A DNA stretch of 64,000 bases from a virus, in IMG/VR virus record IMGVR_UViG_3300045988_073455, one strand, 5' to 3'. The notes below the pieces were generated by a model that was not told the origin of the DNA, did no database searches, and worked only from the letters and a program-made list of their open reading frames with translations. Shown piece by piece: positions 22,574-63,809 of this stretch (positions are counted from its first letter, which is position 1; each line of letters starts with the position of its first letter). Made by a program: the position numbers and the translations under genes.

Positions 22574-22646
22574 GCGGAGATAGCTCAGTTAGCAGAGCGC
22601 AGTGATACCATCACTGAGGTCGTTGGTGCGGCTCCAACTCTCCGCT
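22574..22646 (+). tRNA. non-canonical tRNA-Gly-like, anticodon ACC
   Basis: 73-nt cloverleaf. Acceptor GCGGAGA/TCTCCGC with discriminator U. D arm GCTC-AGTTAGCA-GAGC lacks G18G19. Anticodon arm CAGTG-ATACCAT-CACTG. T arm GTTGG-TGCGGCT-CCAAC has no TTC. Confidence 0.6.
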
Positions 22647-22651
22647 CTTTT

Positions 22652-22725
22652 GCGGGTATAGCTCAGTCGGTCAGAGCGTTACATTCCCAATGTGAAGGTC
22701 GAAGGTTCGAGTCCCTCTAGCCGCT
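22652..22725 (+). tRNA. tRNA-Gly (anticodon CCC) with stem mismatches
   Basis: Acceptor GCGGGTA/TAGCCGC has a G5.G68 mismatch, discriminator U. Anticodon loop TTCCCAA. T arm GAAGG-TTCGAGT-CCCTC has an A51.C63 mismatch. Confidence 0.7.
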
Positions 22726-22754
22726 CTATTTTTGTAGAATTAAAATAAAAGAGC

Positions 22755-23822
22755 ATGAAAATAGCAGTTATAGGAACGGGCAACGTGGGAGTAGCTTTTG
22801 CCGCAGACCTCTCTATTAAAGGTCATGAAGTTACACTCCTAAAGACATCTTCATACAAATCAGATGCCTTTGATAGACTTATCAAGAACGGCAAAAGGGT
22901 TTTTCTTAAAGAGAAATCAACTTATATAGAAACTGCAATCAAAGAGGTTTCTAAAGACCTCAGTAAGGTTGCAGAAGCAGAAGTTATATTTTGTACTATT
23001 CAGAGTAACTTCTATGAGGGTCTAGTAGAACGTATACATCAATACCTTCACAATGATCAGATTGTTGTCTGTATCTCTAGTTACGCATCCTCTTTCTATT
23101 TTGAGAAACATTGCAGAAAACTACCAATGTTAGTTGAAGCAACAGGTCCATATTTGGAAGGACGAGTAGAGTTGGATGATAAACCAAACGAAGTTGTTTT
23201 TCGTGTTGGTTATAGGCATGAAGTTATTCCTGTAGCATGCTTTTCTAATCATGATACCTGCATGGAGAAACTGCATAAAATTAGCAAAGGTTTTATAGCA
23301 AAATATTGCGTGCTTGAATCTGCATTACTCAATCCAAATATGGTGTTGCATACGGTAGGTTCAATTATGAGTATTCCGAGAATAGAATATTCAAAGGGAA
23401 ATTTCTGTATGTATCGTGAAGCATACGCAAGAGGAAATGACTCCACCATCAATCTATTGATGAGACTTGACGAAGAAAAGATGAAAGTCTTAAAAAGCTT
23501 GGGCTTTTTCAAAACAAGCGTATTTGAAGCAGGAGGTTTTAATATGTCAGACCCAATAGAGAGTTTGCATCGTTACTCAGAATCTAGTGATAGAGCCATC
23601 AGCCCAACATCTGTTCACTCACGTTACATCACAGAAGACGTTTCAGAGGGATTGGTACTGATGGAGAGTATTGCACTTCATATAGGCTTAGAGTTACCAG
23701 TTACATCATCCCTCATTACGCTTGCAAGTGTAGCTTTAGGAATAGACTTCCGTAAGACAGGAAGAACTATTCAGAGATTAGGTATTATTAACGAAATAGA
23801 TATGCTTCATGAATGTAGATAG
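22755..23822 (+). CDS. NAD(P)-dependent opine (octopine/nopaline) dehydrogenase-like oxidoreductase
   Basis: 355 aa. N-terminal Rossmann motif MKIAVIGTGNVGVAFAADL. The C-terminal RYITEDVSEGLVLMESIA...LPVTSSLITLAS resembles the octopine-DH C-domain. Confidence 0.6.
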   Translation: MKIAVIGTGNVGVAFAADLSIKGHEVTLLKTSSYKSDAFDRLIKNGKRVFLKEKSTYIETAIKEVSKDLSKVAEAEVIFCTIQSNFYEGLVERIHQYLHNDQIVVCISSYASSFYFEKHCRKLPMLVEATGPYLEGRVELDDKPNEVVFRVGYRHEVIPVACFSNHDTCMEKLHKISKGFIAKYCVLESALLNPNMVLHTVGSIMSIPRIEYSKGNFCMYREAYARGNDSTINLLMRLDEEKMKVLKSLGFFKTSVFEAGGFNMSDPIESLHRYSESSDRAISPTSVHSRYITEDVSEGLVLMESIALHIGLELPVTSSLITLASVALGIDFRKTGRTIQRLGIINEIDMLHECR

Positions 23823-25887
23823 CGATATAAAAAACAGAACATTTGGTATTGAAATCGAAATGTGCAATCTTGAAAGGGCGAAGGTAACTTTGCCCGAAGG
23901 TTACTCCTGGAGCAAGGAAGAGAGCATTGATAATACCGATTGTTCAAGCAATAAGCAGTTTGGTGGAGAGGTAAATACCCCTCCACTACATCTTTGCTGC
24001 CTAAAGGAATTGCACGACCTCCGCTCTGTATATGAATCAATGGTTGCTGCAGGTGGCAGGCTAAAATGGAGCATCTACACCCATGTGCACATTTATGTCG
24101 GTGATTTACCTGTTGATCAGATAAAGAAAGTATTCCTATTCTTCTATCTGTGTTACCATTATTTTAAGCAGTATGCTAAAATATCAGAATGCGATGAGCT
24201 TATATCCATAGCGATGCCAACTCCAACGGAAAAGTATTATAAAGGAGTCCTGCAGGCTCAGACTTTCGAGGATATTCAGAAGTTATTCACTAACAACTCA
24301 AACAAAGGTTTCATACGTCATGCAGTGAATATTTCTGCATATTTTAAGACAAAGACGATAGAGTTTAGACTTTATCATGCTACTGATGATTTCTATCAAG
24401 CTATGGCTTGTGTTCTTTCCACATACAGGCTATTTTATTACGCTATAAGCCACGAATTGGAGGATTTCAAATCAATTACATCATACCAGCAGTTCTGTGA
24501 GGTTACTGGGCTTAAATATGATGTTCCAGACGAATTATGTCCGCTAATCTACCAAGGAAATCCATACGACAAGGTAGAGTCGTATATGACAAAGCCTTTA
24601 CCATACAATTCTGAAATGGTTTCAGCTCTGTATGATGCTGTAAAAGCTAACGGACACAAGGAAATCTGCATAGTAAATGGCTTCATGTATTACTATGAGT
24701 TATTCTTCCTTGATAAGATGGAAGTATCTATATACTGCCAAGATGCCTACTGTTATCTGCTCTATATGTTGGCAAATGGTAAAACATCACTAACATATAA
24801 GGATAAGCTTGCATGGTTGGAGGACTATAACAATTCTACACCATCAAGACAGCTTGCTTTGGCTCTTTATGCGGTGAAACTGCAAAAGTATTTCATGAGT
24901 GAATCGGCAAGAAATAGTGCCATCTTCGAAGCGTTGAAAATTAAGGCAAGGGAATCTATCGAGAAAACCGAGGAGGCAAATGAGCGATTGATGAGATTAC
25001 TCACTACATGTGATTTCCATGTCGGAACACTAGAAGAAGCCATCAAGAATAAGAAGGTAATCTTCTTTAATTACGGAAGAATAGAGAAAAAGCAGAAGAG
25101 AGCATTCAAACTCATTTCTGAGAATAGTGACTTGAAATCAGACTTTTCTGTTGCAAGGAACGACTACTATAATCTTGTGGAAAGTATTCCGAGTGATAGT
25201 TATTTCTATTATTTCAGCAACAGCCCTTATCTGAGAAACCTGCATAAGATAGCTATGTGGAATAATTCAAGTGGGGAAAGACGGTCTGCAGGAAGGTTCC
25301 TATATTGCAATAAGCCAACTGCACAAAACAATGCAAGCACCTCGTATTCTTCATACAGAATCGAATGCAATGAGATAGTTCCTCCAGATGATTTGGAGAT
25401 TACAGACGCAAATAAGCTAAAGATTGAACGAGTAACCCCTCCTTTACTTCATTGCTTGCAAAAGAAGTATATCAAGAAGGTGGACCAATGTAGTGTCTGT
25501 CAATTTGCTTTTGTGGTGAAATACGACAAATATACCCTAGGTGGATTTGGTTTTACGCTACCTCAACACAAGGGGTATGATTTGTTTCAGTTAACGGACT
25601 TCTGCACGAATAACGCAATCCCTCGATTGAGTAAACTCATACTGTACTGCATTCAGTCTGTAGGCGTTCAAAGATATGTGAGCAGAAGAATGCGCAAGCT
25701 TTGCGAGAAGGTTATCTCCTGCGCTTATACCCATAAGCCAGTGAGTATGAAATATCGTGGCGTATACAAGAAAGTGAAGGAACACTGCACATCATCTTAT
25801 CTTGCTTACGAAGGAATACTTGGTATATACCCTACGAATAAGAAAATCATTGAGAAATATCAAAAATCGTTGAAGAATGGAAAATGA
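23809..25887 (+). CDS. Amidoligase_2 (GS-like COOH-NH2 ligase) fused to an approximately 460-aa uncharacterised C-terminal region
   Basis: 692 aa. The N-terminus has FGIEIEM...DNTD...GGEVNTPPL...THVHIY...HAVNISAYFKTKTIEFRLYHATDD. Its start overlaps the upstream gene by 14 nt. Confidence 0.65.
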   Translation: MNVDSDIKNRTFGIEIEMCNLERAKVTLPEGYSWSKEESIDNTDCSSNKQFGGEVNTPPLHLCCLKELHDLRSVYESMVAAGGRLKWSIYTHVHIYVGDLPVDQIKKVFLFFYLCYHYFKQYAKISECDELISIAMPTPTEKYYKGVLQAQTFEDIQKLFTNNSNKGFIRHAVNISAYFKTKTIEFRLYHATDDFYQAMACVLSTYRLFYYAISHELEDFKSITSYQQFCEVTGLKYDVPDELCPLIYQGNPYDKVESYMTKPLPYNSEMVSALYDAVKANGHKEICIVNGFMYYYELFFLDKMEVSIYCQDAYCYLLYMLANGKTSLTYKDKLAWLEDYNNSTPSRQLALALYAVKLQKYFMSESARNSAIFEALKIKARESIEKTEEANERLMRLLTTCDFHVGTLEEAIKNKKVIFFNYGRIEKKQKRAFKLISENSDLKSDFSVARNDYYNLVESIPSDSYFYYFSNSPYLRNLHKIAMWNNSSGERRSAGRFLYCNKPTAQNNASTSYSSYRIECNEIVPPDDLEITDANKLKIERVTPPLLHCLQKKYIKKVDQCSVCQFAFVVKYDKYTLGGFGFTLPQHKGYDLFQLTDFCTNNAIPRLSKLILYCIQSVGVQRYVSRRMRKLCEKVISCAYTHKPVSMKYRGVYKKVKEHCTSSYLAYEGILGIYPTNKKIIEKYQKSLKNGK

Positions 25888-38194: not shown

Positions 38195-38302
38195 ACCCAA
38201 GTAGCTCAGTTGGTTAGAGCGAGACCAAAGTCCGTCACATGAAATCCAGTTGGTCTTTAAAAAGCTGGTTGAAAGACGCAGGTTCGAGTCCTGCCTTGGG
38301 TG
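38195..38302 (+). ncRNA. tRNA-like element with expanded, non-canonical anticodon/variable region
   Basis: Acceptor ACCCAAG/CTTGGGT, D arm GCTC-AGTTGGTTA-GAGC and T arm GCAGG-TTCGAGT-CCTGC are canonical. The 51 nt between them (38222..38272) do not form a 5-bp/7-nt anticodon arm. Confidence 0.55.
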
Positions 38303-38322
38303 CTAACAAATATTATTGGCTT

Positions 38323-39045
38323 ATGAAGAATGACATCGAAATTGGCGCTATTATAGCCATGGTGTTAACAGATACACCTCTAGGCATACAGGTAGGTAGA
38401 AGGCACATGTTCATCTACCCTCAGACTTTAGGCAAGATGTATTTGACAGCTCCACTGATTAAGCTGCTAGGCATCAAAGATGATAACCTAAAGCTAAATC
38501 CCCTCATTGAAGCACTCCGTGTAGTAGGTGAGAATCGAAGTCTCTGTTGTAAGCTAATAGCCTACCACACCCTTCAGAAGAAATCCGATATGCTCAGTTC
38601 ACGCATATTGAAGGCAAGGGAAAACATCATCTTCAAGTTCTGTGATAACGATGATATAGCTACTCTTCTCATCACCATACTCTCAGATAACAAGCTTCAC
38701 GACATAATCACGGAATGTGGGATAGACAAGGAAGCAGAGCGTATGGAGAAGATAAACCAAGCCAAAGACTTCAGCAATCAGTATATCTTTGGTGGCAGAA
38801 CCATTTGGGGCTCTCTCATTGACGCAGCTTGCGAGAGATATAAATGGACTCTTGACTATGTTCTGTGGGAAATCTCATACAACAACCTCACGCTTATGAT
38901 GAAGGATAAGATAACTTCCATCTATCTATCCGATGAGGAAAGAAAGAAGGCTCACATTCCATCAGCAACAGAGAAGGTCTTCAGCGGAGATAACAAAGAG
39001 GACATCATGGAGCTGATCAGACAGAGCGAAGAAAATCCAATTTAA
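38323..39045 (+). CDS. putative tail assembly chaperone
   Basis: ATG at 38323 (MKNDIEIG...). The upstream part of track ORF 38239..39045 overlaps the tRNA-like element. Lies before the tape measure gene. Confidence 0.45.
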   Translation: MKNDIEIGAIIAMVLTDTPLGIQVGRRHMFIYPQTLGKMYLTAPLIKLLGIKDDNLKLNPLIEALRVVGENRSLCCKLIAYHTLQKKSDMLSSRILKARENIIFKFCDNDDIATLLITILSDNKLHDIITECGIDKEAERMEKINQAKDFSNQYIFGGRTIWGSLIDAACERYKWTLDYVLWEISYNNLTLMMKDKITSIYLSDEERKKAHIPSATEKVFSGDNKEDIMELIRQSEENPI

Positions 39046-39119: not shown

Positions 39120-42100
39120 ATGGCAAGTATCAAGTTTGACATAACAGGCGATAATTCATCCGTACTGAAAGCCTTTCGAGGGGTGCAGGATGGGGTGTCA
39201 CAGACAGCAAGAGTAGTCGAGCAGCAGGGTCAGAGCATTGAGAACGTTTTCAATCGCATCAAGTCTGTTGCATCGGTAGCTTTTGCTGGGTTCACGGCAA
39301 AGGAAATCATCAGCACACTGGGTACTGTCCGAGGAGAGTTTCAGCAGTTTGAGATTGCCTTTGAAACCATGCTCGGTAGTGGACAGAAGGCAAAGGGAAT
39401 GATTTCGGACATCGCCAACCTTGCTGCTACTACTCCTTTTGACATGAAGGGTGTGGTAAATGGCGCAAAGCAGCTCCTTGCATACGGATTTGCAGCCAAC
39501 GAGATTACCGATACAATGAGAAGGCTCGGTGACGTATCTGCAGGATTGGGATTGAACTTGCAGGACCTCACATGGCTCTATGGTACCACGATGGTACAAG
39601 GTCGATTGTTCACAAGAGACTTGATGCAATTTACAGGTCGCGGTATTCCTTTGACAGAGGAACTTGCCAAGCAGTTCGGAGTTACCGAGGATAAGGTTTC
39701 GGAATTGGTGACAGCAGGTAAGGTAGGTTTCCCCGAAGTTAAGAAGGCTATCGAAAGCCTTACCAATGAAGGCGGCAAGTTCGGTGGATTGATGGAAAAG
39801 CAATCTCACTCTATTACGGGTCAGATAAGCAATATACAAGATACCATCGAAATGGCTATCAATGACCTCGGCACACAGACCGAAGGCTTGATGAATGATG
39901 CTTTGGATATCACATCTAAGGTTATCGACCATTGGAAGGAGATAGGTGAGGTTATCCTTGCAGCCGCATCTGCCATCGGTCTTTATAAGGCAATGGCAGT
40001 TAGTATAGCAGCCTTTGACACAGCAACAACAAATGCAGGATATGCAGCCGAGTTGTCAGCTCTTGAATCTTTGCTCCCTATGAAGGAAGAAGCAAAGAAG
40101 ACAGACCTTGAAGAAGCAGTAGCCAAAGGTCAATTATCAGCAGCACAGGCAGAGTTGGTAGCATCTAAGCGTGAAGAGGTCGCGGCTTATGTTGCCGAAC
40201 TACAGGCGCAGGCAAAAGCAAAGGCAGACGCAGCCACCGCAGCCGCAGAGGAAGTGAAGGCATTGGAGAACAAACTTGCAATGCAGGACAATGAGGTCCA
40301 ATCACTCCAAGATGCTTACGATGCCCTGCAATCCTATACAGACGGGCAGAAGGTAGAGACAGCAGAAATCAAACTCAATACTGCCGTTAACGAAAGGAAC
40401 ACCATCGCAAAGCAACTCCAAACGGCTAGAGAAACTGCTGCAACCGCAGCCACAGAAGCAAATACAGCAGCCAATGCGGCTAACACTGCATCCCAAGGTT
40501 TGAATACCGCAGCTACCGCAAGAGACACCGCAGCCAAAGGAATATGGGCACAGGTCACCCTTCTCTGCAAAAGGGCACAGGACGCATGGAATGCTTCTAT
40601 GTTCTCAAGTCCTCTTTTTTGGATAGCTGCCACCATCGCAGCAGTAACCTATGCCGTATATAAGCTAGCTACCGCAGAAACGGCACATGAAACGGCAGTA
40701 AGGAAATCCAATGAAGCATGGGATGAGTTTGATAACAAGGTCAAGGAACGTCAGCAGAATATCGAAAGCCTTATCAGAACTATTCAGTCTGAGACAGCTA
40801 CAGAATACGAGAAGGCAGAAGCTTACCAAAAACTCTCCAACCTCGCACCTCAGTTAACGGAGCAATACTCACAAGCTCAACTTGCATCTGCCGATTTTGC
40901 TAAGACGCAGAAGGAAGTTGCCGAGAGCATGGATGAGTTGAAGTACGACAAGGCAGTTGAGGAAGTTGAGAAGTATCGAAAGAAGGTTGAGGAGCTTCAA
41001 ATGCAACTCAGAGCAGACGCAGCCAATGGCGGTCAAGGTAGCATCGCTATCTCATCACAGATAAGCCAAGTCCAAGCAGACCTTGATCAAGCAGAAGAAA
41101 AGCTTTCCAATATCATCCAACTTCGAGACCAAGCAGCCGAGAACGCAAAGCCTATCGAAGTTCGCTTGCAAGAAGCACAGGAGAACGAAAGTGTACGTCA
41201 AGAAATCTTTGACTTCTATGACGAAGCAATCAATCTGGCTAACGATTGGCAAGCTGCCAACGAAACCATCAACTACGCCACAGGTGAGAGTAGATTGGAT
41301 GCGTTCATCAATAAGGCTCAGAAAGAGATAGCAGGTCTTCGAGAAGACATCAAGAACAATCCTGCTGATCTGAATCTCCGCATGCAGGAGTCTGAGAAAA
41401 CAAAGGTTCTGAACAACCTCTTAACTATGAAGCGGAATTGGGCGGTCACAGGCGCAACGACCATTCCTTTGATTTTCAAGGCTCAATGGAATACAGCCAA
41501 ACAATCCCTCAACCAAGCAAAAAAAAGAGCACAAGCGTTGGCTAACAATGGTTCTACGGAAACCTATCAGCAAGCTTACAACAGGACGCAGCGTGAATAT
41601 AACGCAGCCAAGAGGAGGGTTGCTGCTATGGAGAGAAATAAGAGCAAATACACCGCCGCTCAGTACGAAACCGCCACCCAAAACTTGAAAGCAGCCAAGG
41701 ATGCCTACTCGAAACTAGGTGGTGATGTAAGTGGAAGAGCGGCAAAGACAGTAGCAACGGCACATAAGAATCGCATCAAGGAAGAGAACAAGACTATCAA
41801 GGCTCAAGAGGATTTAAACAACCGCTTGAAGACTTTGCAGCAGAAAAATACAGATGAAACTATCTCCCTCATGCAGGAAGGCACGGAGAAGAAACTTGCT
41901 CAAATCAAGAACGACTATGCCAAGCGCAAAGCCGAGATTGACAAGCAGGAAGCAGAGTTCAAGAAGAAAAACAAGGAAGCTGGCAAGAAAGTAACCCTTA
42001 CCTCTGCTCAGTCCAATGCCCTCAATAAGGCTAGAGACCTCGCTACCCAAGAGTATAACAAGAAGCTTGATGAGGTCAACAGGGAAGCCCTCACCTCTAT

Positions 42101-44276
42101 GCGTGACTACTTGAAGGAGTATGGTTCACTCTATCAGCAGAAACAAGCCATTGCCGAGGAGTATGAAGAGAAGATTGCCAAGGCTCAGACGCAGGGCGAA
42201 AAGCTATCTCTTCAGCAGCAGAGAAAGAAGGACCTCCAAACCATCGAGATAAATGCCATCAGACAGAACATCGATTGGGGAAGCGTCTTCGGAGACTTCG
42301 GTACTATGTTCAAGGACCAACTAGAGCCTACCATTGAGAAGCTGCAAGAGCTCTCCAAGAGCACAACAGATGTCAATGAGCAGAAGACCATACAGGAACT
42401 TATCTCCAAGTTACAAGGCTCTGCCACCATCTGGAATAGTGACATCTTTAAGAAAGTATCTGACGACATCAACTCCTATCAGTCAGCCATGCAGGGCTAT
42501 ATTGATGCACAGGAGCGAGAGATTGAAGCCACGAAAGCTGTCACCAAGGCGCAGGAAGACCTCGCCAAGGCTAAGAAGAGCGGTGACAAGACAAGTATCA
42601 GCAAGGCTGAAGCCAACCTCTCTAGAGCGCAGGGCGTACTTGCTACCGCATCTAACAGCGTTTTGGAGTTCGGTTCATCAGTTCAGAAGGCATCATCAGA
42701 CTTGCAGACATCAGCACAGAAGGCAGTTTCTCAGTTTCAGCAGCTTGAAAATGGTTTGCAGGGTCTTACATCGGGGTCGCTCAAAGGCATAGGAAACTCT
42801 ATCCTAGGGCTTGACAAGCTTTTCGGTGGCTCTATGCAGAAGGACGTTGCCAACACGCTTGCAAAGGGCATCCAAGGGTTGCTCGGTAAAGATAGTGACG
42901 CAGCCAAATCTCTGACGAAAGCTTTAGGGGATAGCGGTATGGCAGGTGAAATAATCTCAGCAATACTCGGTATCCTCGATATTCTGAAAGATGGCTTCGG
43001 AACACTCATCAGCAACCTCATGGACACGGTCTTTGGCGTAGTAACGGGCATCCTCGATGATGCTTTATCGGGTGACATCGTTATGAAACCATTGAAGAGT
43101 ATCGGGAACAACGTTTCTCATATCCTCAACACGCTTTCATTCGGTGGCTTTAATAGTCTGTTCGGTGGAGACGGAAATGCAAAGAAAGTCAATGATACCA
43201 TCGAAAGGCTGACGGATAGAAATACCCTCTTGCAGCAATCCATCGAGGATTTGACTGATGCAATGGAAAACTCCTATGGTTCCAAGGCAACCTCATACTA
43301 CGAGCAAGCCTATAAGAATCAGCAGGAGACCAATCAGAACTACCTAGACATCGCAAAAGCGCAGGCAAGCTATCACGGTTCGCACGGCTCATGGAATCGC
43401 TATTGGGGTGGCTTCGGTAGTGATGAGATGGATTGGATCAAGAAGAACGTCAAATCAGACTTCAATGGCGACCTATTCTCCCTTAGTCCAGAGGAAATGA
43501 AGCTCCTCCGTGGCAACGTTGCTATCTGGAATCACATTGAGAACACTGGAAAGGGTAACTATGGTGGGCGTCTGACAGAGAAGCTGAATGACTACATAGA
43601 CCAAGCGGGCAAGCTGGATGAGTTATCAGACAAGCTGAAGGAAAGCCTTACGCAGATTTCCTTTGACAGCATGAAGGATAGCTTCGTATCAGACCTTATG
43701 GATATGAGCAAGTCAGCGCAGGATTTCGCAGACGATTTCTCCGAAATGATGCAGAAGGCTCTTCTCTCCTACTCTATGGAAGACCTCATCAACGGCGACT
43801 TGAAGAAGCTCTATGATGATTGGGCAAAGGCTATCGAGGACAACGATGGCAAGCTTACCGAAACAGACATAGAAGCATTCAACAAGCGTTACGATGATAT
43901 AGTCCAGGAAGGATTGAAGAGACGTGACGAGTGGGCAAAGGTAACAGGCTACACCGGTTCCTCATCCTCATCACAGACCGCAACAAGCGGAGGATGGGCA
44001 TCTATGGGGCAAGATACCGCGGACGAGCTGAATGGTCGCTTCACCGCCCTGCAGATTGCAGGAGAGTCAATCGCTCAGAACATGACTACCACCATATCAC
44101 AGATGGAGAGCATCGTTACACTCGGAATCTCAACCAATGGCGCAGTATTGGAGATTAGAAACATGATGATTATGACAAACAGCTACCTCGAAGACATCGT
44201 GAAGTATTCAAAGCTTACCTATAATGACTTCGGAGCCAAGCTGGATGACATGAACAGAAGATTAAAGGATATTTGA
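39120..44276 (+). CDS. tail tape measure protein
   Basis: 1718 aa with long Ala/Gln/Lys-rich coiled coils and the core motif LYGTTMVQGRLFTRDLMQFTGRGIPL. Confidence 0.85.
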   Translation: MASIKFDITGDNSSVLKAFRGVQDGVSQTARVVEQQGQSIENVFNRIKSVASVAFAGFTAKEIISTLGTVRGEFQQFEIAFETMLGSGQKAKGMISDIANLAATTPFDMKGVVNGAKQLLAYGFAANEITDTMRRLGDVSAGLGLNLQDLTWLYGTTMVQGRLFTRDLMQFTGRGIPLTEELAKQFGVTEDKVSELVTAGKVGFPEVKKAIESLTNEGGKFGGLMEKQSHSITGQISNIQDTIEMAINDLGTQTEGLMNDALDITSKVIDHWKEIGEVILAAASAIGLYKAMAVSIAAFDTATTNAGYAAELSALESLLPMKEEAKKTDLEEAVAKGQLSAAQAELVASKREEVAAYVAELQAQAKAKADAATAAAEEVKALENKLAMQDNEVQSLQDAYDALQSYTDGQKVETAEIKLNTAVNERNTIAKQLQTARETAATAATEANTAANAANTASQGLNTAATARDTAAKGIWAQVTLLCKRAQDAWNASMFSSPLFWIAATIAAVTYAVYKLATAETAHETAVRKSNEAWDEFDNKVKERQQNIESLIRTIQSETATEYEKAEAYQKLSNLAPQLTEQYSQAQLASADFAKTQKEVAESMDELKYDKAVEEVEKYRKKVEELQMQLRADAANGGQGSIAISSQISQVQADLDQAEEKLSNIIQLRDQAAENAKPIEVRLQEAQENESVRQEIFDFYDEAINLANDWQAANETINYATGESRLDAFINKAQKEIAGLREDIKNNPADLNLRMQESEKTKVLNNLLTMKRNWAVTGATTIPLIFKAQWNTAKQSLNQAKKRAQALANNGSTETYQQAYNRTQREYNAAKRRVAAMERNKSKYTAAQYETATQNLKAAKDAYSKLGGDVSGRAAKTVATAHKNRIKEENKTIKAQEDLNNRLKTLQQKNTDETISLMQEGTEKKLAQIKNDYAKRKAEIDKQEAEFKKKNKEAGKKVTLTSAQSNALNKARDLATQEYNKKLDEVNREALTSMRDYLKEYGSLYQQKQAIAEEYEEKIAKAQTQGEKLSLQQQRKKDLQTIEINAIRQNIDWGSVFGDFGTMFKDQLEPTIEKLQELSKSTTDVNEQKTIQELISKLQGSATIWNSDIFKKVSDDINSYQSAMQGYIDAQEREIEATKAVTKAQEDLAKAKKSGDKTSISKAEANLSRAQGVLATASNSVLEFGSSVQKASSDLQTSAQKAVSQFQQLENGLQGLTSGSLKGIGNSILGLDKLFGGSMQKDVANTLAKGIQGLLGKDSDAAKSLTKALGDSGMAGEIISAILGILDILKDGFGTLISNLMDTVFGVVTGILDDALSGDIVMKPLKSIGNNVSHILNTLSFGGFNSLFGGDGNAKKVNDTIERLTDRNTLLQQSIEDLTDAMENSYGSKATSYYEQAYKNQQETNQNYLDIAKAQASYHGSHGSWNRYWGGFGSDEMDWIKKNVKSDFNGDLFSLSPEEMKLLRGNVAIWNHIENTGKGNYGGRLTEKLNDYIDQAGKLDELSDKLKESLTQISFDSMKDSFVSDLMDMSKSAQDFADDFSEMMQKALLSYSMEDLINGDLKKLYDDWAKAIEDNDGKLTETDIEAFNKRYDDIVQEGLKRRDEWAKVTGYTGSSSSSQTATSGGWASMGQDTADELNGRFTALQIAGESIAQNMTTTISQMESIVTLGISTNGAVLEIRNMMIMTNSYLEDIVKYSKLTYNDFGAKLDDMNRRLKDI

Positions 44277-44377: not shown

Positions 44378-44821
44378 ATGCTTAAAGGACAACTTTACAT
44401 AAATGGCAAGGATGCCTATCTTACGTGGGGCATATTCTTAGACGAAACTGCCCTCAGTGCGCTCATGACCCCTGCACCAAACAAGGAGTTCATCAGCAAC
44501 AAGTATCGCTCAAAGGACGGAAAGTCGGTTATCAAGCACAATCCTAGATTGGATGAGAGGGAGATAACGCTGCCGTTCAATATGACCGCCAAGGACTCAG
44601 ATACGTTCTTGATGAACTATGCTAGGTTCTGCGAGGAGGTTCTTGCCAAGGGAGAATTGGTTATCCGCACCCGATTCCAGCCTAATGTGTGGTATCGGTG
44701 TATCTATCTCTCCTGCACTCAGTTTAGTCAGTGCATTCGGGAAATGGCAAAGTTCAGCCTAAAGCTCAACGAGCCAGACCCTAGTGACAGAGGTGAAACA
44801 AGTAAATACGCAAGCTCATGA
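44378..44821 (+). CDS. distal tail protein-like
   Basis: 147 aa, directly after the tape measure gene. Its stop overlaps the next gene. Confidence 0.45.
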   Translation: MLKGQLYINGKDAYLTWGIFLDETALSALMTPAPNKEFISNKYRSKDGKSVIKHNPRLDEREITLPFNMTAKDSDTFLMNYARFCEEVLAKGELVIRTRFQPNVWYRCIYLSCTQFSQCIREMAKFSLKLNEPDPSDRGETSKYASS

Positions 44822-50248: not shown

Positions 50249-51472
50249 ATGGGTGTTAAATTGACAGAAAAGAAGCTTGTGACGGCAATGAATCCCGACC
50301 AAACCTTCTTGATTGTAGTAGATGGAGCTCTTCGCAGATTAAGTCTCGGAGACCTTCAGAAAATGATGGGTAACAATATTTTCTACCCATCAATCACATT
50401 GGAGCAGTCTTCTAATCCTAAATTCGCTCTGCCAACGCCTTTCATGGCTGATATGTATCAGAGGGCAATGGGTGGATATATGATGAAGGTTGTGAATGGT
50501 AAGGTGTATGCTGCTAAGCTAGACCCTAGTAATTGGGAGTTCTTTGCTGACGGAACAAAGGTGGATGATGCGGCAAAGTATGAGACGATGGTTCATGTTC
50601 CCGATTGCCACTTCAAGGCAGAAAACAAGACCTTGCAATTTGGAGGATTATTCCCTATTTCGGGCGGCAAGACATTCGATTCGCCAAACTGGGTAGGTGC
50701 ATACAAGATGTATGTGGATGTAAGCGGTGTGGGTCATTCAAGACCTAACGTTGCCCCTTCACATTCAAGGACGATGAGTGCATTTTGGGCTTGCGCACAG
50801 AAGCTTGGTTCGAACTTTGGTCTTGCAAACTATGGATTTCAATGCCTCATAGAAGCATTGGAACAAGTAAGTTTTGGTGACCTTAATACACAATCTGTAA
50901 TTGGAGCTGGATTCCAAAGTAGTTCTTGGGAAGCATGTCGTGATGTACCTATGGGTAAGTGTATATCTCTCGGTGATGGTAGCGGTAAGGTACTCTATAA
51001 CGATACTACTCTCGATAATCAATACCCCGTCAAATTATTTGGCTTTGAGGAATTATGGGGTAAGCTTTGGGAGTTCCGTCCAGGCATCCGTTTCTACATG
51101 GATGGCGATACTCGATACGCTGTTGTCTATAGCGGCAATCAGGTAAGTAATACGGCAAATGGGCGAAAATTTACCATTCTGTCATCAGCTAATGGAGAGT
51201 ATATTACACGAAAGACACTGGGTGCATATTGGGATGCGTTTCCGCAAGCCGTAGGAGGCGGTGATAGTACGTACTACTGCGATGGATTTTGGGCTTCGAC
51301 TAGTGGCGAGCTGCTGAACGTTGGGGGGAGCGCTGACAACAGGTTGCTCTGCGGTCTTTCGTATGCGAACTCGAACAACGGTTTCTCGAACTCGAGGACG
51401 TTCATCGGCGCTCGCTTGGCTTTCTACGGAAACCCGACAATCGTGAGCGGTTCGGAGCTCATGGCGATGTGA
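50249..51472 (+). CDS. DGR target (variable) protein, C-type-lectin/FGE-like C-terminus
   Basis: 407 aa. The C-terminal YYCDGFWASTSGELLNVGGSADNRLLCGLSYANSNNGFSNSRTFIGARLAFYG contains the VR. Confidence 0.85.
   Translation: MGVKLTEKKLVTAMNPDQTFLIVVDGALRRLSLGDLQKMMGNNIFYPSITLEQSSNPKFALPTPFMADMYQRAMGGYMMKVVNGKVYAAKLDPSNWEFFADGTKVDDAAKYETMVHVPDCHFKAENKTLQFGGLFPISGGKTFDSPNWVGAYKMYVDVSGVGHSRPNVAPSHSRTMSAFWACAQKLGSNFGLANYGFQCLIEALEQVSFGDLNTQSVIGAGFQSSSWEACRDVPMGKCISLGDGSGKVLYNDTTLDNQYPVKLFGFEELWGKLWEFRPGIRFYMDGDTRYAVVYSGNQVSNTANGRKFTILSSANGEYITRKTLGAYWDAFPQAVGGGDSTYYCDGFWASTSGELLNVGGSADNRLLCGLSYANSNNGFSNSRTFIGARLAFYGNPTIVSGSELMAM
51308..51427 (+). repeat. DGR variable repeat (VR)
   Basis: 120 bp matching TR at 111/120 positions. 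Of the 9 mismatches, 8 lie opposite TR adenines. Confidence 0.9.
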
Positions 51473-51492
51473 GCCAACGCTAGGTGTTGGCT
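51472..51492 (+). promoter_or_regulatory. hairpin immediately 3' of VR (DGR target-recognition-type stem-loop)
   Basis: AGCCAAC-gctaggt-GTTGGCT. It overlaps the stop codon. Confidence 0.55.
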
Positions 51493-51682
51493 GCATATCT
51501 GCCAGTGAGCTAGACAGAAATAGAGAATTAATAAAAATAATGTAAAACGCAAGATTGAAACTACAAAGTTGAAATCTCCTTATAATAGGATTCGCAGAAG
51601 CACAAAAATATAAACAACCCATTTTCGTGCGATAAGATTTTCTACAACCATGGAGTGGGTGAAGAAAAGGTGATACATCATG

Positions 51683-51802
51683 GAGCTGCTGAACGTTGGG
51701 GGGAACGCTGACAACAGGTCGCAATGCGGTCTTTCGTATGCGAACTCGAACAACGGTTTCTCGAACTCGAGGACGAACATCGGCGCTCGCTTGAATTACT
51801 AC
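51683..51802 (+). repeat. DGR template repeat (TR)
   Basis: In the VR frame the TR has eight AAC codons and one AAT. About 29 adenines in total. Followed by an approximately 300-nt non-coding spacer before the RT gene. Confidence 0.9.
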
Positions 51803-52108
51803 ACAAGATTTCTATTTTTAGAATTACGATATAATTTACACTGTTCCTCGCAAGTCGTAAAGCTACGGGATAGCTTTTGGACGAGAGAGCACATGATTGA
51901 ACCTGTCTCGATGGAGGGATATTTATTCCGACAGAGCGAAGATTAAAGGCGTTGGGTATGAGCAGTTGGGTATGTCCGACTACAACAGAGTCCCCTCTCG
52001 CAAGTAAGTGATACAGTTGTACGTATGTGCCGAAAGCCAGTGAGCCGAGAGTGTAGAAAGCCTATTGATAAGGAAAGCGATTTTTGAAATATTGGTTGAA
52101 GTATAAAA

Positions 52109-53491
52109 ATGACGGACACACAAGAGCTGGCGTATAAGCGAAAGGCTAAACTTCGCAAGAAGCACAGAAAGGTCAGAGTAGAGCTTGTCAGTGATATGAC
52201 TAACCTCAAGATTGCGGTAAGGAAATCACGCAAGGGAAAGGAAGGAAAGAAGGGAGTGGTGATATTCGATAAGGATTATAATGGTAATCTTTTGAGATTA
52301 CAGAGAAGTCTTATAGATGGAACTTACAAGACTAGCGAAGGGCACGATTGTATGAGACGATGTATGAGACGATGCCCTTGCGGTAAGGTAAGAAAGCTTC
52401 ATAAGCTTCCGTACTACCCAGACCACGTTGAGCAGCATGCCTTGATGCAAATTCTGATGCCGTACCTTATAAGAGCTCTCTACATAGAGAGTGGGGCAAG
52501 TGTAAAAGGCAGAGGAATGATTTATGCGAAGCGCAGAACAGAAAGATGGATAGACGAGAATAAGTCATGTGGAAGATTGTACTATTGCAAACTTGACTTC
52601 GTTAAATTCTATGAGAACGTAGACCAGCAGGAGATATACAAATCTCTGTGTGATTTCTTTACCGATAAAGGAATTAGAAGACTTTTGCATGAAGTTATCT
52701 TTGCCTTACCGAAAGGTCTAGGTATTGGTCTATATCCTATTCAGACCCTTACCAATTTCTATATGAGTATATTGTGTAGATTGGTATGTAGGAAGTTTGA
52801 TGTTAAGGTAGAGATATATTGTGATGATGTCATTATATTGGGTAAAAACGAAAAGGAAGTATGGAAAGCCATCAACTTCATATTGAAATATGCTGATGAA
52901 GTGATGCACCAGCAGTTGCACGATAATATCGGAATGCAGATAATTGATGAAGCTCATTTCCTTGATTTTGTCGGTTACCGATTCTATTTCAATCATACAA
53001 TGTTGAGAAAGCGCATGAAGGAGAAATTCAAAAAGAAGATGCACAACCTTAAAAATCCTATGAGGAGATACCAAGTGGCTATGAGCTACAAGGGTTGGTT
53101 GATGCACTGCGATGGTTTTAATCTTTGGAGAATGATAACAAAAATGAATAGTTTTGATGATTTTAAGATGCCGCAGGTTGAGGACAGAGATGCAAACGGC
53201 AAGAGAATGTTCGAAGGTCAAAGGATGAGTGCAAGCTACTTTGCCGAGAGAACTATTGTTTTCCTTGATGTTGAATTTGATGTTAATAGCAAGGTTCATA
53301 AGTCAGGGAAGAGCAATGTTGTTAGCGTTGAGGAGAACGGACAGAAGTTTAAGTTCTTCACTAATAACAAGAAACTCGTTGAGCAGTTGCAATGGTGCTC
53401 AGAAAATGATAAATTCCCATTCCTTGGAAAGTTGCGTAGAATGAATCAGAGCGGGAACCCTGATTTCAGAATTGTAGGAACAAAAGCATAA
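52109..53491 (+). CDS. DGR reverse transcriptase
   Basis: 460 aa with KVRKLHKLPYYPDHVEQHAL, GLGIGLYPIQTLTNFYMS and the catalytic EIYCDDVIILG (YxDD). Adjacent to TR. Confidence 0.9.
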   Translation: MTDTQELAYKRKAKLRKKHRKVRVELVSDMTNLKIAVRKSRKGKEGKKGVVIFDKDYNGNLLRLQRSLIDGTYKTSEGHDCMRRCMRRCPCGKVRKLHKLPYYPDHVEQHALMQILMPYLIRALYIESGASVKGRGMIYAKRRTERWIDENKSCGRLYYCKLDFVKFYENVDQQEIYKSLCDFFTDKGIRRLLHEVIFALPKGLGIGLYPIQTLTNFYMSILCRLVCRKFDVKVEIYCDDVIILGKNEKEVWKAINFILKYADEVMHQQLHDNIGMQIIDEAHFLDFVGYRFYFNHTMLRKRMKEKFKKKMHNLKNPMRRYQVAMSYKGWLMHCDGFNLWRMITKMNSFDDFKMPQVEDRDANGKRMFEGQRMSASYFAERTIVFLDVEFDVNSKVHKSGKSNVVSVEENGQKFKFFTNNKKLVEQLQWCSENDKFPFLGKLRRMNQSGNPDFRIVGTKA

Positions 53492-53520: not shown

Positions 53521-53931
53521 ATGGATATTAGAAAGTCTATATTCGATTACTCACCTAGTCTGATTGAGTATGAGGGTAATTTTATTCGCATCAATTTCGA
53601 TGTTGAGCAGGTTGAGTTGGAAAATAATATGGGTAGCAGCGAAGGCAAAAAAACTACCCGAATGGCTTATGCCGCCCACGTTGTCCGTATCGAGCAGCCT
53701 TTGGAGCGAGGTAAGATAGTTGATGCAATCGTCTCATCCGCTTATCCGACCGACAAGATGCAAGCTATCATCAACAACCATTTCGCCAATCTTGCCAAAA
53801 TTGCGGATGGCAAGAAGCTTGATGCCGATGATAAGGAGCATGAAGCAGAGTATGAAGCTATGCAATCATGGCGCACGAAGGCGAAGGCTGTAGCTACGGA
53901 TGTTATAGACAATTATATCAGTACTCATTAA
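53521..53931 (+). CDS. hypothetical protein
   Basis: 136 aa. It does not look like a basic four-helix Avd. Confidence 0.5.
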   Translation: MDIRKSIFDYSPSLIEYEGNFIRINFDVEQVELENNMGSSEGKKTTRMAYAAHVVRIEQPLERGKIVDAIVSSAYPTDKMQAIINNHFANLAKIADGKKLDADDKEHEAEYEAMQSWRTKAKAVATDVIDNYISTH

Positions 53932-53948: not shown

Positions 53949-55091
53949 ATGAAAAAGGTAGTACATCTTTTTGCTTCGCAGCGTGTCAACCGCAAGGCAC
54001 GTACTGACAATGAAGAGGTATTCAGGGAGAAAGTTACGCTCATTACCAACAAGGAGATGAGTATCGGTCAGCTTGCAGACTTTTCTCAGTTGGTTAAGGA
54101 TATGGGCAATTGCGGTATAGTGATAGGCGATGGTAAAGTTGTGCTAAAAGGCGACCAGATAAAGGTGCTCAACGGCAATGACGAGGCAGCGATGTTTGAA
54201 GGTGGTAAGCTCAATGCTAAACTGATTGATGCAGAAACTATCACCATGAATCACCTTTATGCAAAGAGTGCAGAGGATGGAACTATTGTCGGTCATTTCG
54301 GTAATTACGATAAAGCCGATGCTGTAGTAGGTAGTGATAAGTGCCCGCTTTGGCTTGGTGCAGCATTGGCTAAGGATGCGCCATTCAGAGTAACGAAAGA
54401 TGGTTCGTTATATGCGTCTAAGGGTATATTCGCAGGAGAACTGAAGGGTGTGACAGGCTCTTTTCATAGATTGACTGCGGTTAGTTCTGATGGAAATAAA
54501 AGCGCTGGTTCAATATATTTTGATGGTTCTGGCCGTATAACATTTGATGCAGATATTTATAATCAAGGATATAATTCTGCGGCGAAAAGAGGTTGGCGTT
54601 TCTATGCTAGTAATGTATGGTGTCGTTCAGCCTTTGGGCATCGACAGAGTACATTGGCAGTAGTATCTGGGGATGTTATGCAAGTTTATCCTGACGGATA
54701 CGATAGCGAAAGAATACCTGTGCCTCTAGAGCGTGTTTCTTATGACAATAAAACCGTATACAAAATTCCATTGTATAGTCCTAATGAAAATTTGTCCGGA
54801 TGTCCTATTGATATAGTAGTATTCAGTCCTCTTAGAGCAATTGCTACATATTATTACGAGTTTGTACCTGGAGGAACAGGTAAGCGTTGGATGGCAATAA
54901 ATGCCAATGACAATAATAATAGAATACATTTCTGTGATGTCGGTGGATGGCATCAACTTAATGGTGGAGAAACAATAAATCTTGTATATATAAACCCAGA
55001 ATTACTTATTCCTAGCCAGGAGGATAAGACCTATTTCGGTCGTGGTATCTTCTGGAGCGGAGTAAATGATTTGAATTGGGACAATAGATAA
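53949..55091 (+). CDS. tail fibre-like protein
   Basis: 380 aa, beta-rich, with GGAGG upstream. Confidence 0.45.
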   Translation: MKKVVHLFASQRVNRKARTDNEEVFREKVTLITNKEMSIGQLADFSQLVKDMGNCGIVIGDGKVVLKGDQIKVLNGNDEAAMFEGGKLNAKLIDAETITMNHLYAKSAEDGTIVGHFGNYDKADAVVGSDKCPLWLGAALAKDAPFRVTKDGSLYASKGIFAGELKGVTGSFHRLTAVSSDGNKSAGSIYFDGSGRITFDADIYNQGYNSAAKRGWRFYASNVWCRSAFGHRQSTLAVVSGDVMQVYPDGYDSERIPVPLERVSYDNKTVYKIPLYSPNENLSGCPIDIVVFSPLRAIATYYYEFVPGGTGKRWMAINANDNNNRIHFCDVGGWHQLNGGETINLVYINPELLIPSQEDKTYFGRGIFWSGVNDLNWDNR

Positions 55092-55111
55092 TTATAAAAG
55101 CAAAAATAAAT

Positions 55112-55438
55112 ATGAAAAAGAATTTCAATGTACCTTTCAAGAATTGGAAGGGTGAGGTGATAGTATCACCAGTAAAGAACGAGAGCGGAGAGGAAACCTA
55201 CAAGCAACAGATTATAGGCGATATTGTAGGAAAGGTACTCTTCGAGGTGATAGACAATCAGAGTATTCAGCTATCGGGCGAAGAAAAGCTACGTGCTTAT
55301 CGGGTAGCCTGCAAGATAGGCAAGGATGCTGAGAACGTAGACCTCGAATCTGAGGATATTATTCTTATCAAGAAGATACTCTGTCCTGTGATGGCTGTAG
55401 GTGGTTATGGTCAGATTGTTGATTTACTAGAAGGATAG
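55112..55438 (+). CDS. hypothetical protein
   Basis: 108 aa, the last gene of the long + strand structural operon. Confidence 0.5.
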   Translation: MKKNFNVPFKNWKGEVIVSPVKNESGEETYKQQIIGDIVGKVLFEVIDNQSIQLSGEEKLRAYRVACKIGKDAENVDLESEDIILIKKILCPVMAVGGYGQIVDLLEG

Positions 55439-62636: not shown

Positions 62637-63809
62637 TTACTGAAAAATATAGTCTATAACCTTCCTATTTGCATCATCAATTTTTTGCTGATTGAAATTG
62701 ATGTAAACCAGTGTCACTTTTGCACCTGTAGAGAAAGAATGTCCTAGGGCATGGCTTATCACATCAACGGGTATATCGAGTTCGCTAGCAATTGTTGCCC
62801 AAGTATGACGAGCCCAGTAAGATGTTAGATTATCAAAACCTTCAATGCTTTGTAATATCTTTCCCCATGATGCAGTAAACGTATGGACGCTTGCGTATTG
62901 ATCGAGAATGCAGAGTAGATGCTTTCTCCCTCTATATTTGTCTATGATGGCTAACGCTTCGGGCTCAACTTTGATGCTATATAGCTTCTGTGTCTTTTGT
63001 CGTTTATAGTGTATATAGCCATCTTGCCCTATCTCAGTGAGGTTGCAAAGGTCAGCTACATTGATGCCTATAAGAAACAAGGATAGTTTGAACATATCGA
63101 CAGCCATGGTTTGCTTCTCGCTCCCATGGAAAGAAAATAATCGGTGCAATTCGTCAATAGTCAGAGAACGCTTAATTGTAGGCTCAGACTTGATCTTGAA
63201 TACCCGAAAAGGATAAGACATAGTTATCTCATTTGCCATGGCATCACGAAATACAGCTCTGATATTGCGAAAATGAATACTCCTTCCATTTACAGACGGA
63301 GAAGATTGAAGAAGAAACGCATCAAAACCACTAAGCCAATCCTTAGTAATATCCTCGAAAGTTTTCGTCTTAATCTTAGCATCATACTCAGCCATACGTT
63401 TTGCAGTTACAAGATAAATCTCCTTCGTCCTCTTAGCAGTGCGTGATTCTGCATAAGACAGGAAACGGCTGTAAAAGCCATTTGCGGTTACTACGGTTGG
63501 CTCCATGATTTCTACAACCTTGTTTTTAATTTGTGTAGCTGTCAATTTGGTTAACTCACCTTTCTTCAATAATTCGAGAACGATATTTGATACTGTGCTT
63601 TTTTGGGTATCAATATAGCTCTGCAGGTTTGCTTTGTCTGGTCTATTCTTGATGCGTTCCTTACTTGTGTCCCATTGAGTTGGTAATATCTTCACACCAA
63701 GATTGATGTACGCAGAAGAGCCCTGTTTGTTAATACCAATTTTAAGAGGGGCTTCATCACCTCTCTTAGAACTACGCTTATCTAAGTATATGTGAATTGT
63801 TACTGCCAT
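62637..63809 (-). CDS. int: tyrosine recombinase / phage integrase
   Basis: 390 aa. N-terminal SAM-like region, C-terminal ARHTWATIASELDIPVDVISHALGH...LVYI. Adjacent to a tRNA gene. Confidence 0.9.
   Translation of the reverse strand: MAVTIHIYLDKRSSKRGDEAPLKIGINKQGSSAYINLGVKILPTQWDTSKERIKNRPDKANLQSYIDTQKSTVSNIVLELLKKGELTKLTATQIKNKVVEIMEPTVVTANGFYSRFLSYAESRTAKRTKEIYLVTAKRMAEYDAKIKTKTFEDITKDWLSGFDAFLLQSSPSVNGRSIHFRNIRAVFRDAMANEITMSYPFRVFKIKSEPTIKRSLTIDELHRLFSFHGSEKQTMAVDMFKLSLFLIGINVADLCNLTEIGQDGYIHYKRQKTQKLYSIKVEPEALAIIDKYRGRKHLLCILDQYASVHTFTASWGKILQSIEGFDNLTSYWARHTWATIASELDIPVDVISHALGHSFSTGAKVTLVYINFNQQKIDDANRKVIDYIFQ

Follow-up and report, generated by a model that had tools for sequence, protein, structure and literature searches.

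How does a diversity-generating retroelement (DGR) copy and mutagenise its template when no recognisable Avd protein accompanies it? The question is raised by a tail-gene cassette at positions 50249-53491 of IMG/VR virus record IMGVR_UViG_3300045988_073455, a 64,000-nt stretch of viral DNA referred to here as the window. Nearly all knowledge of DGR mechanism comes from the Avd-dependent element of Bordetella, and the published survey of DGR RNA elements (Handa et al.) covers Avd-containing cassettes only. A preliminary description of the window, made from its letters alone, had recognised a DGR aimed at a tail-fibre gene, with its variable repeat (VR), template repeat (TR) and reverse transcriptase (RT), and had singled out the lack of Avd and the length of the RT as odd. 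The anatomy of the cassette, its diversification across a population of relatives and the affiliation of its RT all support the DGR assignment. We place at roughly 85% the probability that the cassette is a DGR, complete and active in nature, whose target is a tail protein of a temperate, siphovirus-type gut phage of Segatella/Prevotella, the figure applying jointly to the element and its carrier. What takes the place of Avd is a more tentative matter, for which an extra RT domain and a structured RNA that brackets the template are considered below.

Adenine-directed variation in the target gene

The target gene (50249..51472, + strand) lies 3' of the tape measure and Dit-like genes and encodes a tail or receptor-binding protein of 407 aa (phrog_5302, "tail protein", E 4e-33), with the VR near its C-terminus. 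The protein has no match in Pfam or among PDB sequences. Its C-terminal 150 aa are 27% identical (E 4e-7) to the tip of the target protein of Hankyphage (Bacteroides phage p00, BK010646), a tip classed by Benler et al. as a C-type lectin, and a C-type-lectin fold is predicted for the tip here from that similarity.

The VR occupies 51308..51427 (+ strand) and is matched, ungapped and at an offset of 375, by the non-coding TR at 51683..51802 (+ strand). Direct comparison returns exactly the 120-nt repeat and the 9 mismatches given in the preliminary description, and the codon changes listed there are correct on direct reading, as are the eight AAC codons and one AAT codon of the TR in the VR frame. 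Eight of the nine mismatches fall at TR adenines (51705, 51723, 51724, 51776, 51777, 51794, 51795 and 51798); with 29 adenines in 120 nt, the probability of at least eight of nine landing on adenine by chance is 8e-5. The remaining mismatch sets a TR C at 51720 against a VR T at 51345, a C>T change private to this copy. No second VR was found in the 64-kb window.

Three of the adenine mismatches are of a different kind from the rest. At VR positions 51419, 51420 and 51423 (GCTTTC in the VR vs AATTAC in the TR) the same VR base occurs in 41-42 of 42 close relatives, and because they are identical across essentially all of these loci they are read as fixed VR/TR boundary differences that lie outside current diversification. 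A GC-rich block, ATCGGCGCTCGCTTG, is conserved in both VR and TR, with the fixed GCTTTC/AATTAC difference just 3' of it. By analogy, the boundary differences appear to behave like the fixed IMH/IMH* (initiation of mutagenic homing) marks of the 3' boundary in Bordetella. The VR can be divided on this basis into a diversified part, 51309-51404, and a conserved, GC-rich, IMH-like 3' boundary, 51405-51427. The earlier count of 8 substituted adenines among about 29 is numerically right, but with the 3 fixed boundary differences set aside only 5 of 25 mutable adenines have changed. This is the lowest value among 56 loci, the relatives having 9-20; the VR at 51308-51427 may have been rewritten recently or mutagenised only weakly.

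Evidence for activity comes from comparison among phages. Fifty-nine related viral contigs (RT identity 63-97%) were retrieved, and at each locus the TR was compared with its own VR. Over 55 related phage contigs, TR adenines account for 932 of the 1009 TR/VR mismatches; the DGR reading, which had been staked on VR variation being tied to these positions, survives comparison across assembled genomes. The 42 loci with TRs at least 95% identical to that of the window carry 40 distinct VRs and 19 TR variants, and the mean minor-allele fraction among them is 0.41 at TR-adenine positions vs 0.02 elsewhere. In distant relatives (RT 53-57% identical) and in Hankyphage, mismatches are all or nearly all at TR adenines, the sole distant relatives with non-adenine mismatches being L052 and L047, with one or two each. 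Forty VRs among 42 near-identical TRs indicate, from differences between assembled genomes, that the element is active in nature.

A hairpin over the target stop codon

The end of the target gene is marked by an inverted repeat (51462..51504, no strand assigned) able to form a hairpin or cruciform with an imperfect stem of ~19 bp and a loop at 51480-51484. A GC-rich hairpin had been noted after the VR at 51472..51492. It exists, but those positions are the core stem of a larger structure, which takes in the target gene's final codons, stop codon included, and, as DNA, folds at -14.1 kcal/mol (z = -4.65). A hairpin is present at the target stop codon in all nine relatives examined (9/9; z -3.3 to -7.1), and its stem sequences differ among them. 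Guo et al. 2011 (PMC3240598) described a target hairpin/cruciform that acts in a structure-dependent, sequence-independent manner and has a GRNA loop consensus. The loops of the relatives' target hairpins are often GTAA or GTAG, and the loop here is CTAGG. By analogy, the structure at 51462-51504 fits the target-recognition hairpin of Guo et al. 2011, with a loop that departs from the GRNA consensus.

The reverse transcriptase and its C-terminal domain

The RT gene (52109..53491, + strand) encodes 460 aa matching Pfam RVT_1 and phrog_1423, with YCDD at residues 237-240, so that both the length and the catalytic motif reported earlier are confirmed. A profile of 60 homologues finds the Bordetella phage DGR RT 8ub7_A at E 1e-27 (100 bits), followed by group II intron and retron-type RTs at ~35 bits. 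The AlphaFold (AF2) model of the RT, with a predicted local distance difference test (pLDDT) score of 87, likewise has 8ub7_A as its best Foldseek match (template modelling (TM) score 0.86 by target length, root-mean-square deviation 2.8 Å), and the best RT matches in a tblastn search of annotated phages are Hankyphage, crAss-like phages and Bordetella phages. Profile and predicted fold, rather than a tree, support an affiliation with DGR RTs and not with group II intron or retron RTs, which the preliminary description had held out as the result that would undo its reading. The open reading frame (ORF) is intact, and the catalytic residues are invariant in an alignment of 59 homologues. In motif 4 (I206-G-L-Y-P-I-Q212) the serine of canonical [LIV]GxxxSQ is isoleucine; this I and the Q are nearly invariant across the 60 homologues.

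The length of the RT is due to an extra C-terminal domain (residues ~350-460, ~110 aa; 53156..53488, + strand) that is absent from bRT, the Bordetella enzyme, which ends at profile position 336. The domain is predicted to be beta-rich, with five strands and one helix, and is modelled confidently both in the full protein and alone (pLDDT 88.5). The preliminary description had suggested looking for an Avd-like helical bundle at the RT termini; the AF2 model contains none. The domain is conserved across all homologues and aligns with the C-terminus of Hankyphage RT. Searches of PDB return no profile match and no significant Foldseek match. In BFVD the matches are to the C-termini of other viral and phage RTs, with weaker ones (E about 1e-2, TM about 0.5) to small phage single-stranded-DNA-binding proteins. 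The model comparisons hint at nucleic-acid binding by this domain, and we offer this as a guess.

A free-standing version of the domain, acting as a separate accessory protein, was considered because of phrog_19665 and of short matches to the domain profile. Against 1.8 billion representatives the profile gives 90 matches, in length classes of ~430-580 aa and ~100-135 aa. Of the short class, two cases were inspected: L277 is a fragment at a contig end, and L278-L280 represent the downstream portion of an RT gene with a frameshift; since both are fragments, they give no evidence for a free-standing domain, and the candidate was rejected. In L278 (2751-4104), and also in L279 and L280, a frameshift divides a related DGR RT gene, whose thumb and C-terminal domain continue in the +1 frame. 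This layout occurs in several independent contigs and recalls the frameshifted RT reported for Quimbyvirus.

The absence of Avd

Avd is a small (~100-130 aa), basic (isoelectric point (pI) about 9.5) four-helix bundle encoded next to the TR or RT; it is present in the majority of DGRs, and Avd-containing cassettes constitute architecture B. Two families represent it, Pfam PF05635 and NCBIfam TIGR02436, and matches were listed to E about 1e-3 (Pfam) and 5e-3 (NCBIfam). No Avd-type family is among those listed for 125 window ORFs of 75-260 aa on both strands, and none is among those for 99 small ORFs flanking 18 related RTs, Hankyphage included. The lack of a recognisable Avd is borne out by these hidden Markov model (HMM) searches, both in the window and beside the related RTs. 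For Hankyphage, the 2018 paper (Benler et al.) pointed to a small ORF resembling Avd in size and charge.

The preliminary description regarded the absence of Avd and the 460-aa RT as odd points, a judgement that does not stand, as both features had already been described by Wu et al. 2018 (PMC5758913). In that survey avd accompanies 74% of 372 DGRs, and the absence of Avd here is unexceptional because 26-29% of the curated DGRs are without it. The accessory-free Architecture A accounts for 75 of the 372, Lineage 3 is devoid of avd, and Lineage 3A is restricted to Bacteroides and relatives. C-terminal extensions of up to ~150 aa were reported in about 20% of DGR RTs. The same authors sought remote avd genes in the genomes of Avd-less DGRs and found none.

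A structured RNA that brackets the template

The gap between TR and RT had been described as a non-coding spacer of about 300 nt. Its length, 306 nt, agrees, but the spacer is not featureless: it holds a conserved, covarying structured RNA of ~200 nt (51878..52073, + strand) that ends 36 nt before the RT start codon. MAFFT alignments of the TR-to-RT region, down to 53% RT identity, contain invariant blocks, variable-length loops and compensatory stems. In 29 loci, with RT identity as low as 50%, a covariance model of the RNA (R1), built from nine sequences, gives full-length matches of 96-239 bits directly 5' of the RT; it has no match in a relative of 41% RT identity or in Hankyphage. A DNA pattern scan for the RNA was unspecific, and only matches confirmed by the covariance model were used. 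In the R1 alignment 93.5% of cells pair, and slid controls collapse; 13 of 35 pairs have changed on both sides, where shuffles average 8.4 and none of 500 is as high. The spacer has no Rfam match at gathering scores or at E<=1. By analogy, the RNA at 51878-52073 is a candidate for the functional equivalent of the Bordetella "Sp" RNA.

Covariation also links this RNA to the other side of the template. Immediately upstream of the TR, 51668..51682 (+ strand) provides the 5' strand of a two-part long-range RNA duplex, in which 51677-51682 pair with 51892-51897 and 51668-51671 with 51901-51904. Across 25 distinct sequences 100% of cells are standard pairs, with compensatory double changes in 5 of 10 pairs (22 cells). 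The covariation score is 0.29 vs 0.12 in shuffles (0 of 500 as high), and slid partners score <=0.10. RNAalifold proposes a different outermost helix (~51891-51900 with ~52052-52062), which was rejected in favour of the TR-upstream pairing, as it has 85% pairing and no covariation. The 3' end of the TR is strongly conserved and offers too little variation for covariation with the spacer. In Bordetella RNA, Handa et al. defined a "cPRT Stop" duplex between the TR flanks and predicted it in 207 DGRs, all of them Avd-containing. That a covarying, TR-bracketing duplex also occurs in an Avd-less clade points to a part of the mechanism shared by DGRs with and without Avd. A mechanically called ORF of 88 aa (51680-51946, + strand) has an ATG that falls in the TR-bracketing duplex and, in the VR frame, continues across the TR; it is unlikely to be a gene.

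The open reading frame downstream of the reverse transcriptase

The RT is followed by an acidic ORF (53521..53931, + strand; 136 aa, pI 5.2), which the preliminary description had judged unlike Avd. That judgement is sustained: by its acidity, its lack of an Avd HMM match and its family's relation to DUF4376 proteins, the product can be said, on sequence criteria, not to be Avd. It has no informative HMM match in Pfam, NCBIfam or PHROG, DUF4376 included. In 59 of 59 IMG/VR loci and in 12 of 13 from genomes, with RTs as little as 41% identical, a homologue lies directly 3' of the RT. The family comprises short forms of 121-138 aa and long forms of 217-231 aa, and the window's protein, which aligns to the N-terminal domain of the long forms, consists of that domain and a short helical tail. 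Pfam DUF4376 is found above its gathering score (cut-off 25) in the long forms (30.6 bits in L061) and in Hankyphage ORF161 (29.7 bits). The window's protein and ORF161 are not significantly similar by BLASTP (E 0.26), and it is solely by way of the long-form homologues, together with Pfam DUF4376, that the two can be linked.

In Alteromonas phage V22, DUF4376 marks gp27, a tail-fibre chaperone with experimental support whose gene lies directly 3' of the fibre gene. The long form retrieves 80 viral loci. A DGR-type RT stands immediately upstream in 24 of them, some of these RTs being distant (23-45% identity), and ~55 show no RT within 4.5 kb. From this family relationship, the product of 53521-53931 is most likely a fibre-chaperone-type partner of the target protein and not a DGR factor. 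The constant synteny of RT and ORF may then be explained, we propose, because the TR-RT unit sits between a fibre gene and its chaperone gene.

A possible Avd-independent mechanism and its alternatives

A cycle of the following kind may be fitted to the observed anatomy, the adenine-specific diversification in the population, the affiliation of the RT, the absence of Avd and the RNA covariation. A transcript covering the TR and the downstream structured RNA, with both TR flanks clamped together by the duplex, would be copied by the RT into cDNA, with misincorporation opposite template adenines. The cDNA would replace VR positions 51309-51404 at the 3' end of 50249-51472, a target marked by the GC-rich 3' boundary and by the hairpin over the stop codon. 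Priming would occur in cis, as it does from the spacer in Bordetella, and the spacer RNA and the RT C-terminal domain would take over the roles that Avd has in Bordetella. In its specific form, the proposal is that Avd has been replaced by an RT-fused, possibly OB-like nucleic-acid-binding C-terminal domain together with the enlarged, ~200-nt, TR-clamping spacer RNA; we hold this tentatively and would put it somewhat short of even odds. Were it true, the element would be a two-component DGR of RT and RNA, easier to reconstitute than the three-component Bordetella system.

Several points weigh against parts of the account. The C-type-lectin fold of the target tip is argued from homology and not from a structure model, and the nucleic-acid role of the RT C-terminal domain is a guess made with no significant match to a solved structure. 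Activity is judged from differences between assembled genomes, neither from experiment nor from reads. The low VR diversification of this copy could mean that it was recently reset or is less active, and motif 4 of the RT, IGLYPIQ, deviates from canonical [LIV]GxxxSQ. Placement in Lineage 3 of Wu et al. follows from Hankyphage similarity and shared architecture, not from their tree.

Few substitutions and one non-adenine change (51345) in this copy might also suggest that VR and TR are a duplication arisen by chance or in decay, within an element that no longer functions. Such decay is extremely improbable in view of the 40 VRs that 42 near-identical phages carry, varying at TR adenines only, and of an RT that is intact, conserved over 59 homologues and invariant at its catalytic residues. 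For an active element, an Avd-like helper might be supplied in trans, from the host's chromosome or from phage sequence beyond the window. The Avd family is poorly conserved (Wu et al. 2018, PMC5758913), and the scan was confined to ORFs of at least 75 aa within the 64 kb. Yet the window runs from portal to integrase and a related contig measures 64.4 kb, so that little of the phage is missing; no Avd HMM match occurs in the 125 window ORFs or in the 99 beside 18 related RTs; and the search for remote avd in genomes of Avd-less DGRs was negative (Wu et al. 2018, PMC5758913). A helper in trans is consequently very unlikely. The spacer, for its part, might lie outside the reverse-transcription RNA and be either a 5' leader that regulates the RT gene or a short stretch of coding sequence. 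Its RNA does end 36 nt 5' of the RT start codon, and mechanically called ORFs overlap it (51680-51946, + strand, and 51943-52233, - strand). Variable-length loops and compensatory changes, however, favour RNA structure over coding, and one strand of the duplex lies immediately 5' of the TR, so that the structure encloses the template, as in Bordetella and the 207 DGRs. A leader or coding function is on this evidence unlikely.

The remaining alternative concerns the ORF at 53521-53931, which might be a true accessory factor replacing Avd, equivalent to the CH1 protein that Wu et al. 2018 (PMC5758913) described in Avd-less Bacteroides DGRs. CH1 is small (160-169 aa), acidic (pI about 4.7) and limited to such DGRs, a description that Hankyphage ORF161 (161 aa, pI 5.0) fits; the window's ORF is shorter, at 136 aa. 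The near-constant position of its homologues after the RT (59/59 and 12/13 loci, to 41% RT identity) speaks for an accessory role, as does the acidic DUF4376 protein directly after the Hankyphage RT and the occurrence of DGR-type RTs, even of 23-45% identity, immediately upstream of 24 of 80 long forms. Against it stand the ~55 of 80 long-form loci without an RT within 4.5 kb and the tail-fibre-chaperone role of DUF4376 in Alteromonas phages, a chaperone gene being expected after a fibre gene. An acidic protein is, moreover, unlike a nucleic-acid-binding helper, and the window's copy is without the DUF4376 part. We regard a CH1-type factor as doubtful, if deserving of some weight, and retain the fibre-chaperone-type partner as the preferred assignment.

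Hundreds of protein clusters represent the clade in human and ruminant gut metagenomes, where it is abundant. As a genome feature the locus is otherwise an ordinary phage tropism-switching DGR. What the present analysis adds is a comparative definition of the RNA with its TR-bracketing duplex, a description of the extra RT domain and a new placement of the downstream ORF, in a chaperone-type family. The Avd-less clade thereby gives a comparative picture of an RT with an extra domain, a template-bracketing RNA supported by covariation and a conserved target hairpin. It is a good candidate system in which to ask how, without Avd, reverse transcription gets its primer, and it might also lend itself to an engineered mutagenesis tool of smaller size.

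The phage and its other features

The window holds a near-complete temperate phage, from an SPP1-type portal (at 12820) through a Bacteroidetes-type tyrosine integrase (62637-63809). The tape measure gene (39120-44276, Pfam TMP_3) precedes the Dit-like gene (44378-44821), which is followed by a run of tail genes. As the window reaches from portal to integrase, and a related IMG/VR contig measures 64,450 bp, most of the phage is covered and little is missing. The locus has no megablast match among 50,697 annotated phages, its relatives there being found only at the protein level. Homologues of the ORF at 53521-53931 are named Segatella copri, on contigs of 0.9 and 4.0 Mb, and more distant relatives occur in Prevotella and Prevotellaceae genomes, as would be expected for the carrier proposed above. 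Cassette contigs also occur in metagenome-assembled genomes labelled Lachnospiraceae, Melainabacteria, Oscillospiraceae, Clostridium and Gemmiger (L183, L184, L186, L188 and L191), which are probably mis-binned.

Beyond the cassette, 53949-55438 carries a 380-aa fibre-like ORF and a 108-aa ORF, 3' of the ORF at 53521-53931. In many otherwise 93-97% identical relatives (among L002-L059) this position is replaced or partly similar, which indicates mosaic exchange of a second fibre cassette. Further upstream, 22574-22726 (+ strand) contains a pair of adjacent tRNA-Gly genes with anticodons ACC and CCC, and 23809-25887 (+ strand) encodes a 692-aa protein with amidoligase, phage DAM-like and phage GNAT-like domains, possibly a DNA-modification enzyme. 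An Rfam tRNA match of 47.4 bits at 38195-38302 (+ strand) has 52 nt vs 17 in the model in the anticodon-arm region. It is a tRNA-like gene with an insertion or intron of ~35 nt; it is not called by ARAGORN and overlaps the start of the ORF at 38239-39045.

Comparison with known systems

The best-studied DGR, that of Bordetella phage BPP-1 (mtd-avd-TR-brt), resembles the present element in diversifying a tail-fibre tip through adenine-specific changes in the VR, in having fixed VR/TR differences at a GC-rich 3' boundary and in carrying a hairpin 3' of the VR. The RT core fold is the same, and in both a structured RNA lies 3' of the TR, with pairing between the TR flanks. The two differ most plainly in Avd, present in BPP-1 and absent here. 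The BPP-1 RT is 328 aa long vs 460 aa here, owing to the added C-terminal domain, and its spacer is about 140 nt vs 306 nt. The hairpin loop is GRNA in BPP-1 and CTAGG here, where the region between VR and TR is non-coding.

Outside DGRs, the closest point of comparison for the downstream ORF is gp27 of Alteromonas phage V22, a DUF4376 protein. The relatives of the ORF at 53521-53931 carry DUF4376 and, like gp27, lie 3' of a fibre gene, whereas the window's own ORF is an N-terminal domain with a short helical tail and no Pfam DUF4376 match.

Among the DGR classes of Wu et al. 2018, the cassette resembles architectures A/E and Lineage 3/3A in having a TR-RT core without avd, HRDC or MSL. That lineage is likewise found in Bacteroides and relatives and has RT C-terminal extensions, and a part of it has a small acidic flanking gene, CH1, of 160-169 aa compared with the 136-aa ORF here.

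The closest likeness is to Hankyphage, in which the order is the same: target with VR, short gap, TR, spacer, RT and acidic gene. The RTs are 31% identical over residues 92-438, the extra C-terminal domain included, the C-terminal domains of the targets are homologous, and the 3' ends of TR and VR have nearly the same sequence, ACGAACATCGGnnCTCGnnTG. Both elements are without an HMM-detectable Avd, and both belong to hosts of the order Bacteroidales. Hankyphage is, however, Mu-like and transposable, with a target of 2,225 aa, whereas the phage here is an integrase-bearing siphovirus type with a target of 407 aa. The spacer RNA model R1 has no match in Hankyphage, the RT motif there is the canonical IGLRSSQ rather than IGLYPIQ, and the gene after the RT here is without the DUF4376 part. 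The cassette belongs with the Avd-less DGRs associated with Bacteroidales, of which that of Hankyphage is the best known, and it represents a good specimen of an already described group rather than a new kind of system.

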